Part shown: one piece after another, positions 20,876 through 21,024 of the stretch
Numbering within the stretch: position 1 is the stretch's first letter
How the letters are laid out: each line of letters begins with the position of its first letter
Source of the DNA: a virus
Lineage: Duplodnaviria; Caudoviricetes
Direction: 5' to 3' (one strand)
Length of the DNA: 64,000 nucleotides
Virus record (IMG/VR): IMGVR_UViG_3300037067_006113
Span: 51,272 to 115,271 of that record
Translations under genes and position numbers: made by a program
The notes under the pieces: generated by a model
The model's input: the letters and a program-made list of their open reading frames with translations, nothing else
Database searches by the model: none
What the model was told of the DNA's origin: nothing

Positions 20876-21024
20876 TTGAAAACTGAATAGGCTCGTTATG
20901 GGCAGTGAACCATTAGGGACTAGGAGTCTAGTAATATGTTAACTAAACGGTAATTGCAATCTATTACCACCTAGAGGTGTACAACTCTGCAAGTCAAACC
21001 TTGCCGAGCCTACTTAGTTTTTAA
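20876..21024 (+). ncRNA. tRNA-mimic ncRNA with branched anticodon domain, inside boxA-like stem
   Basis: AGGCTCG/CGAGCCT acceptor, ATGG/CCAT D arm, TAGG/CCTA closing two hairpins, GAG/CTC arm, GCAAG-TCAAAC-CTTGC T arm; outer AAAACTGAAT/ACTTAGTTTT. Confidence 0.65.

Follow-up and report, generated by a model that had tools for sequence, protein, structure and literature searches.

The 149 nt that separate a tRNA-Leu(CAA) gene from a small ORF in a phage tRNA operon (20876–21024) are predicted to fold into one strongly closed RNA, which we regard as a real unit of the operon. We read this element as a structural unit of RNA processing or punctuation that takes the place of a tRNA, with a probability of roughly 0.4. 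The fold z-score, the collinearity of its interior with tRNA-Lys(CTT), the register of the ORF behind it, the promoter of the operon and a second closed spacer in the same phage favour this reading, while an interior that folds no better than shuffled sequence, a helix that forms on both strands and the absence of the element from related phages weigh against it. New from this analysis are the tRNA-Lys(CTT) relic in the interior and the common register of 5–6 nt at the ORFs.

Coordinates refer to the window, the whole stretch of 64,000 nucleotides that was analysed, which comprises bases 51272–115271 of the complete 115,271-bp record of an uncultured phage with a GC content of 32.6% and a capsid only distantly SPO1/SP-10-like. 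The plus strand carries an operon of 22 tRNA genes, 20 of which were detected by ARAGORN and the others (20307–20378 and 20720–20790) by Rfam. The 20 tRNAs neighbouring the element reach 39–66 bits with the Rfam model RF00005. A sigma-70-type promoter (TTGATT / 17 nt / TG-TATAAT, 19873–19901, plus strand), identified as a consensus match, heads the operon and probably drives its transcription, the element included. In agreement with the original prediction, the element lies inside the tRNA array, directly 3' of the encoded CCA of tRNA-Leu(CAA) (20798–20875, plus strand), which stops one base short of the closing helix. Six nucleotides 3' of the element begins an ORF of 107 aa with a DUF7448 domain and no Shine-Dalgarno (SD) sequence (21031–21354, plus strand), whose stop codon abuts tRNA-Arg(TCG) at 21355. 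The DUF7448 protein (P0001) is found identical on three contigs in all; the loci around its homologues contain no tRNA array, and no close relatives were found for the neighbouring peptidase.

Several tRNAs of the operon are themselves unusual. The two that ARAGORN missed score 48 and 50 bits in Rfam (20307–20381 and 20720–20793); the first has an odd anticodon arm (…CTCGTGGGTTTCATAAGCCCGAG…) with an extended stem or an oversized loop, and the second, read as Glu(CTC), has a T loop that departs from the standard. A long variable arm is the defining trait of class II tRNA-Leu. All three tRNA-Leu genes here (19916–19991, 20798–20875 and 21673–21748) are 75–78 nt long and have no such arm, and short tRNA-Leu genes of this kind also occur in the related phage G002 (L052 2961–3035, 3448–3522 and 3624–3699).

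The closing helix (20877–20895 / 21005–21023) is the top inverted repeat of the tRNA array region. It contains 18 bp (10 + 8), two of them G.U, with a single A x C mismatch (A20887 opposite C21013). The outer 5' arm TGAAAACTGA (20877–20886, plus strand) forms 10 bp with 21014–21023, both G.U pairs included, at a pair probability of 0.99, and the inner 5' arm TAGGCTCG (20888–20895, plus strand), the acceptor-like strand, forms 8 bp with 21005–21012; the 3' arms together read CGAGCCTA + C + CTTAGTTTTTA (21005–21023, plus strand). The arms are 85% Watson-Crick complementary, pair probabilities in the ensemble are 0.98–0.99 across the helix and its stacked hairpin, and the helix still forms in a folding context of 331 nt. 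The whole element has a minimum free energy of –48.9 kcal/mol (z = –4.87), and none of 200 shuffles folded as well. The enclosing stalk that had been proposed for this site is thus borne out as a predicted structure, and so is the statement that the acceptor-like stem is prolonged into TTGAAAACTGAAT/ACTTAGTTTTTAA with no CCA at its end: this pairing continues into GGCTCG/CGAGCC, so that the two make a single 18-bp helix. With 10 + 8 bp, a 1x1 mismatch and a stacked 5-bp hairpin, it offers the double-stranded stem of about two turns within one transcript that is typical of an RNase III stalk.

Inside the helix, the predicted fold consists of an irregular rod of 3 + 3 + 3 bp, whose 5' strand (20900–20911, plus strand) pairs with 20976–20987 at about 0.8 and had earlier been read as a D arm. 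It is followed by a junction with two hairpins. The junction opens from the stem TAGG (20914–20917, plus strand) / CCTA (20970–20973), with probability 0.90. Hairpin 1 is ACTAG / GAGT / CTAGT (20919–20932, plus strand; 0.84) and hairpin 2 is GGTAAT / 8-nt loop / ATTACC (20949–20968, plus strand; 0.99), so all three parts of the two-hairpin arrangement in the original prediction were recovered. Finally, a T-like hairpin of 5 bp with a 6-nt loop, GCAAG / UCAAAC / CUUGC (20989–21004, plus strand; 0.98), adjoins the 3' strand of the closing helix without a gap. The interior alone (20896–21004) has a z-score of only –1.13, and 28 of 200 shuffles fold equally well; therefore the statistical fold signal of the element stems from the closing helix.

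We then compared the position of the element with those of the tRNAs in the operon. The three ORFs of the operon (20388–20636, 21031–21354 and 22176–22412) have no SD sequence, while most other genes have one of the GGAG type. Their starts lie 6, 6 and 5 nt past the preceding RNA unit, which is a tRNA for the ORFs at 20388 and 22176 and the element for the ORF at 21031. The spacers are AATTAT-ATG (after the CCA ending at 20381), GTTTAT-ATG (after the element end at 21024) and TTAAT-ATG (after the CCA ending at 22170), and the GTTTAT spacer (21025–21030, plus strand) is like the other two in length and A/T-richness. At their other ends, the ORFs at 20388, 21031 and 22176 stop –5, 0 and +7 nt relative to the next tRNA. 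ORF 20388–20636 overlaps tRNA-Ile(TAT): its final 5 nt, TGA stop included, form part of the 5' acceptor strand, and this ORF would lose its stop codon on cleavage by RNase P. The element fills the gap from the CCA of tRNA-Leu(CAA) to 6 nt before the ATG base for base. Since the same register is found behind tRNAs and behind the element, the element holds the slot of a tRNA; and since the register counts from the end of the stalk, the relevant boundary is the stalk end and not the end of the acceptor-like stem. A micro-ORF of 14 codons at 20898 was also considered and rejected; it has no SD sequence and starts 2 nt past the helix. Upstream of a further gene without an SD sequence, of 2,367 aa (42037–49140), stands CTGAGTTTTTTTAATTTATATTTAT-ATG, a sequence similar to the 3' arm of the element together with its spacer (CTTAGTTTTTAAGTTTAT-ATG).

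The same geometry could mean that the element controls translation of the DUF7448 gene in cis. The helix ends 7 nt before the AUG, in the space occupied by the 30S subunit, so translation would need the helix to be cut or melted. The phage lambda N leader, which is RNase III-sensitive, is a parallel for such helix-dependent translation. The missing SD sequence, the helix end 6 nt upstream of the ATG and the region from the AUG onward, which is predicted to be unstructured, fit this idea. However, the other two ORFs without an SD sequence are spaced alike behind ordinary tRNAs, whose structure is constitutive. This points to a generic rather than a regulatory geometry, and we consider control of this kind very improbable.

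The interior of the element was then aligned with the tRNAs of the array. In a gapped local alignment of the element core against all 22 tRNAs, tRNA-Lys(CTT) (21521–21596, plus strand) came out on top with a score of 41.4, against 29.4 or less for the others. This score was attained by none of 2,000 shuffles and by none of 1,500 random genomic control windows. When the maximum over the 22 tRNAs was taken under four scoring schemes, 1, 1, 4 and 12 per 600 shuffles reached the score. The signal is confined to 20933–21012 (0 of 600 genomic control windows), with none in the first half of the element (377 of 600). The matching segment (20940–21000, plus strand) is collinear with tRNA-Lys positions 8–71, and 45 of 54 aligned columns are identical (83%), with deletions that take out the 5' strand of the anticodon stem and the T stem. 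This collinear similarity places the segment among tRNA-derived sequences, that is, pseudogenes or relics. Judged from the alignment, the interior is for the most part a decayed and remodelled copy of the tRNA-Lys(CTT) gene, of which the intact paralogue lies downstream in the operon, and it is no longer able to fold as a tRNA. None of the tRNAs of related phages matches the relic; as it matches only the tRNA-Lys of its own phage, the copy would be recent and local. Derivation from tRNA-Leu(CAA) was rejected: the element shares 11 nt with its anticodon arm, which BLAST rates no better than chance (E = 11), and the gapped alignment is borderline (7 of 300 shuffles). We likewise rejected the idea that the first half of the element holds a tRNA relic in antisense orientation.

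Hairpin 2 is made from sequence aligned to the D loop and the anticodon loop of tRNA-Lys, with changes in both strands, and these changes are suggestive of remodelling as far as one sequence can tell. The element resembles tRNA pseudogenes and remodelled duplicates in its collinear 83% identity with an intact neighbouring tRNA and in its stem-destroying deletions, but here the relic has become part of a new closed fold of high stability, to which it lends strands and which fills its gap exactly.

The original prediction had called the element a tRNA mimic with four tRNA-like arms. If it works as one, the acceptor-like stem and the flush hairpin would imitate the acceptor/T minihelix and so be recognized by tRNA-binding proteins such as RNase P or RNase Z, and a separate function would fall to the expanded "anticodon" domain. 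An acceptor-like stem of 6–8 bp with a 5-bp hairpin stacked directly on it is indeed predicted, U-A follows the 5' strand as at tRNA positions 8–9, the element sits in the slot of a tRNA and its interior has tRNA ancestry. A structure of comparable design is present in the related phage G002 (L053 1146–1324, G002:C1:60145–60323), where a canonical tRNA body (7-bp acceptor, D loop AGTGGTA, T loop TTCGAAT, no encoded CCA) carries, in place of its anticodon loop, an insert of about 110 nt with two hairpins. The layout, though only the layout, is also common to 16948–17081 on the minus strand, as had been noted before: its closing helix, too, is interrupted by a 1x1 mismatch, a small hairpin follows after 2 nt, and another hairpin directly adjoins the 3' strand.

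Against these points, the rest of the tRNA-like shape did not hold. The D and V arms have probabilities of only 0.11 and 0.00, because both segments pair together as the irregular rod, a fold that beats the cloverleaf by 3.8 kcal/mol. The "T" loop, UCAAAC, has 6 nt and lacks the 7-nt T-Psi-C-R-A consensus; the D-like loop GCAGUGAA has no GG, so G18 and G19 are absent; and in place of a 7-nt anticodon loop the TAGG/CCTA stem opens into the junction. Neither RF00005 nor any other Rfam family matched 20876–21024 at E <= 10, and ARAGORN found no tRNA in the element in intron mode or at thresholds lowered to 70%, and on this result we rejected an intron-bearing tRNA. The map of the tRNA-Lys homology conflicts with the proposed arms as well: the "T loop" corresponds to the 3' strand of the former acceptor and the "V arm" to the former T loop. 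Moreover, beyond the discriminator position the leader is completely paired with the trailer, which, given the known requirements of RNase P and RNase Z, would disfavour access by these enzymes, and the ORF register is set by the stalk end rather than by the acceptor end. A flush T-like hairpin together with a D-like hairpin and a central stem occurred in 1.3% of dinucleotide-shuffled interiors, a pattern chosen post hoc, so the frequency is uncommon yet weak evidence for tRNA likeness. What survives of the mimic is therefore the tRNA ancestry of its interior and not a present-day tRNA shape, and we regard a working mimic as improbable. There was also no match on the element to the model of YrlA, the Y RNA-like family RF02553. 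In YrlA the tRNA-like module is loop-closed, and the 5' and 3' ends form a Ro-binding stem at the anticodon position; the topology of the element is unlike this, because its ends extend the acceptor-like stem.

A search of Rfam and IMG/VR had been suggested together with the original prediction, and it returned neither an Rfam family nor a homologue of the element. Megablast and blastn against 50,697 phage records gave no useful homologue, blastn for the sister element at 16940–17090 gave nothing useful, and neither did exact-pattern scans of IMG/VR for the T-like arm with the acceptor and for the 3' half of tRNA-Leu. A pattern scan of metagenomes produced two chance matches only, both in unrelated coding DNA, and 21 further contigs, mostly capsid-protein relatives, contained no syntenic tRNA array. 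DNA and covariance-model searches did not find the element in G001, G002, G003, G005 or G027, the first four of which are related phage genomes with tRNA arrays. The tRNA arrays of G002 contain several multi-hairpin spacers; none is homologous to the element, and no tRNA-relic signal was found in these gap elements.

The other tRNA array of the phage, on the minus strand outside the window, contains a second spacer of the closed type. Here 189 nt between tRNA-Asn and tRNA-Pro (genome G000 32155–32343) have a closing helix of about 20 bp (z = –4.5) around an interior with z = –1.35, and the outer stalk TTGACAATTGAGT is identical to that of the element at 10 of 13 bases. A tRNA-shaped sequence on the same strand, also outside the window (G000 ~32950–33050), has canonical D and T arms and is closest to the tRNA-Glu(CTC) of G002, but it has no anticodon, as the arm that should bear one is a long stem capped with a GCAA tetraloop. 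In another record (L085 2654–2799, minus strand; IMGVR_UViG_3300030616_000007), a unit of 146 nt with a 23-bp closing helix (z = –4.5) lies between a terminator-like hairpin and an ORF start and matched no Rfam family; it shares the outer 13-mer, which was forced by the search pattern, and a single match of this kind is little more than expected. Other closed elements with the outer 13-mer were also considered as homologues of the interior and rejected.

These comparisons bear on a neutral origin of the element. A duplicated tRNA-Lys(CTT) could have decayed in place, the helix could be an inverted repeat at the DNA level, generated by a MITE-like insertion or by a rearrangement that creates palindromes, the RNA would have no selected role, and the 6-nt register would be left from a formerly working tRNA. 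The helix is nearly equal on the minus strand (z = –4.63), and the three differences between its arms are transitions leading to G.U or A x C, about as expected by chance. Therefore an inverted repeat at the DNA level is possible, and a neutral relic of this kind is a serious rival. It is also in line with the lineage-specific occurrence of the element, the recent origin suggested by a match to the tRNA-Lys of its own phage only, and the weak fold of the interior. Helices of 19 positions with G.U allowed arise about four times per shuffled 64-kb window, but the arm duplex of the element reaches –24 kcal/mol, against –14 to –18 for such chance helices. Bacterial elements of 130–150 bp that carry the terminal 13-mer and perfect inverted ends look MITE-like, and one of them is multi-copy; they share only the pattern-demanded 13-mer with the element, which is single-copy in the phage genome and has no target-site duplication in its flanks. 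Multiple copies, conserved terminal repeats and target-site duplications, by which MITEs are recognized, do not characterize it. Neutrality also sits poorly with the rapid loss of useless DNA from phage genomes, with a helix that spans the intergenic gap exactly, with changes from tRNA-Lys that create a perfect 6-bp hairpin 2, and with a second closed spacer of similar outer stalk in the other tRNA array. Taking both sides together, we hold a neutral relic to be possible but on the whole unlikely.

The stalk had also been described as boxA-like and tied to a general processing-cassette model. We compared it with the boxA consensuses of E. coli (UGCUCUUUAACA) and B. subtilis (AUGAUCUUUGAAA; PMC13753749). 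It matches the B. subtilis consensus at 8 of 13 positions, the UCUUU core is lost, six of the bases belong to the 3' end of tRNA-Leu, and UUGAAAA is paired in the stalk. Antitermination by boxA and Nus factors uses the consensus in single-stranded RNA, which the element does not present, and the boxA label is not supported. The helix arms were also rejected as a promoter or a terminator.

The ORF-wrapping frames of this phage (14907–18767, minus strand) are real. In each, a 5' arm beside an AGAAAG ribosome-binding site has its complement just past the stop codon, and three cassettes carry matched variants of the arms (conserved 5' TTRAAAAYAAAATCRGGYAGAAAG, 3' RCCYGATTTTTTAATTTAG). An unrelated contig, G027 (L083 5440–5800), has such a frame around a different ORF of 59 aa, with arms 85–90% identical and a like design of the downstream hairpin. 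The link of the element to these cassettes is weak. A hand-made regular expression, written post hoc, selects exactly the three cassettes and the element, but an nhmmer profile of four cassette arms does not match the element even at E <= 1000, and about seven sites per genome within edit distance 3 of the arms are expected by chance. The proposed participation in processing is strengthened by the 5–6 nt register before an SD-less ORF, as behind two tRNAs, and by the second helix-closed spacer.

Located exactly where a tRNA precedes the other small genes of the operon, the element probably marks a cutting or boundary point of the RNA. According to the punctuation reading, it would work as a structural punctuation mark between tRNA-Leu(CAA) and the DUF7448 ORF. 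Cleavage by host endonucleases would take place at or next to the closed helix, with RNase III acting on the helix itself or a single-strand endonuclease acting on the adjoining A/U-rich spacer of 6 nt. Such a cut would free the 3' side of tRNA-Leu and yield an mRNA with a very short leader for the DUF7448 gene, and the closed RNA would remain as a stable by-product, with or without a role of its own. We infer the cleavage, the identity of the enzyme and the stability of the product from this arrangement. A broader version would make the whole operon one of mitochondrion-style "tRNA punctuation", in which SD-less genes between tRNAs receive leaders of 5–6 nt from tRNA processing, a decayed tRNA-Lys copy has been rebuilt as a helix-closed boundary RNA, maybe a stable small RNA with its own job, and the second closed spacer is the same device. 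In this full form we think it rather unlikely.

The element appears as a variant of themes that are already known. In rRNA precursors and in the B. subtilis scRNA precursor, the 5' and 3' flanks pair into stems that RNase III cuts, and the enzyme also cuts early mRNA of phage SP82 (PMC4838370). In these processing stalks, as in the element, the RNA's own flanks form an enclosing helix of about two turns within a longer transcript; the helix of the element, however, has 18 bp with one mismatch, and its cleavage is only inferred. By analogy, the closest documented parallel is the punctuation seen in plant mitochondria, where the ends of mRNAs are defined by tRNAs, by tRNA-like t-elements and by stem-loops resembling an acceptor (Forner et al. 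2007, PMC1920247). There, too, a degenerate tRNA-derived structure lies at the site of an mRNA end, and other sites in the transcript are served by canonical tRNAs. The t-elements differ in having a conserved pseudouridine-arm motif, GGTTCRANYCC, and in being cut by RNase Z or RNase P (PMC1920247); the element lacks this motif, has its leader and trailer in a long helix, and belongs to a phage and not to an organelle.

Among phages, small stable RNAs with tRNA-like ends are represented by RNAC and RNAD of T4. They come from the tRNA region of T4 (PMC3014915) and are likewise non-tRNA small RNAs co-transcribed among phage tRNA genes. They are documented as stable products, whereas a stable product of the element is a prediction, and the comparison is one of genomic setting and transcription. 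The PeSL cassettes of T4-type phages (PMC2839356, PMC4122927) and the ORF-wrapping repeats of this phage both show short regulatory modules that repeatedly frame small accessory genes, but PeSLs consist of a promoter and a terminator hairpin and not of 5'/3' pairing as in the ORF-wrapping repeats and the element.

The element also advises caution in naming such RNAs, for "tRNA-shaped" folds within a strong closing helix can come from modest chance layouts. Before they are called mimics, they should be tested with tRNA models, with shuffles of the interior only and with ensemble probabilities. If the punctuation reading is true, phage tRNA arrays would exceed codon supply: tRNAs and exapted relics would together define the ends of embedded mRNAs, and the arrays would act as compact processing machines. 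The element would then also record a traceable remodelling of a tRNA gene into a different structured RNA.
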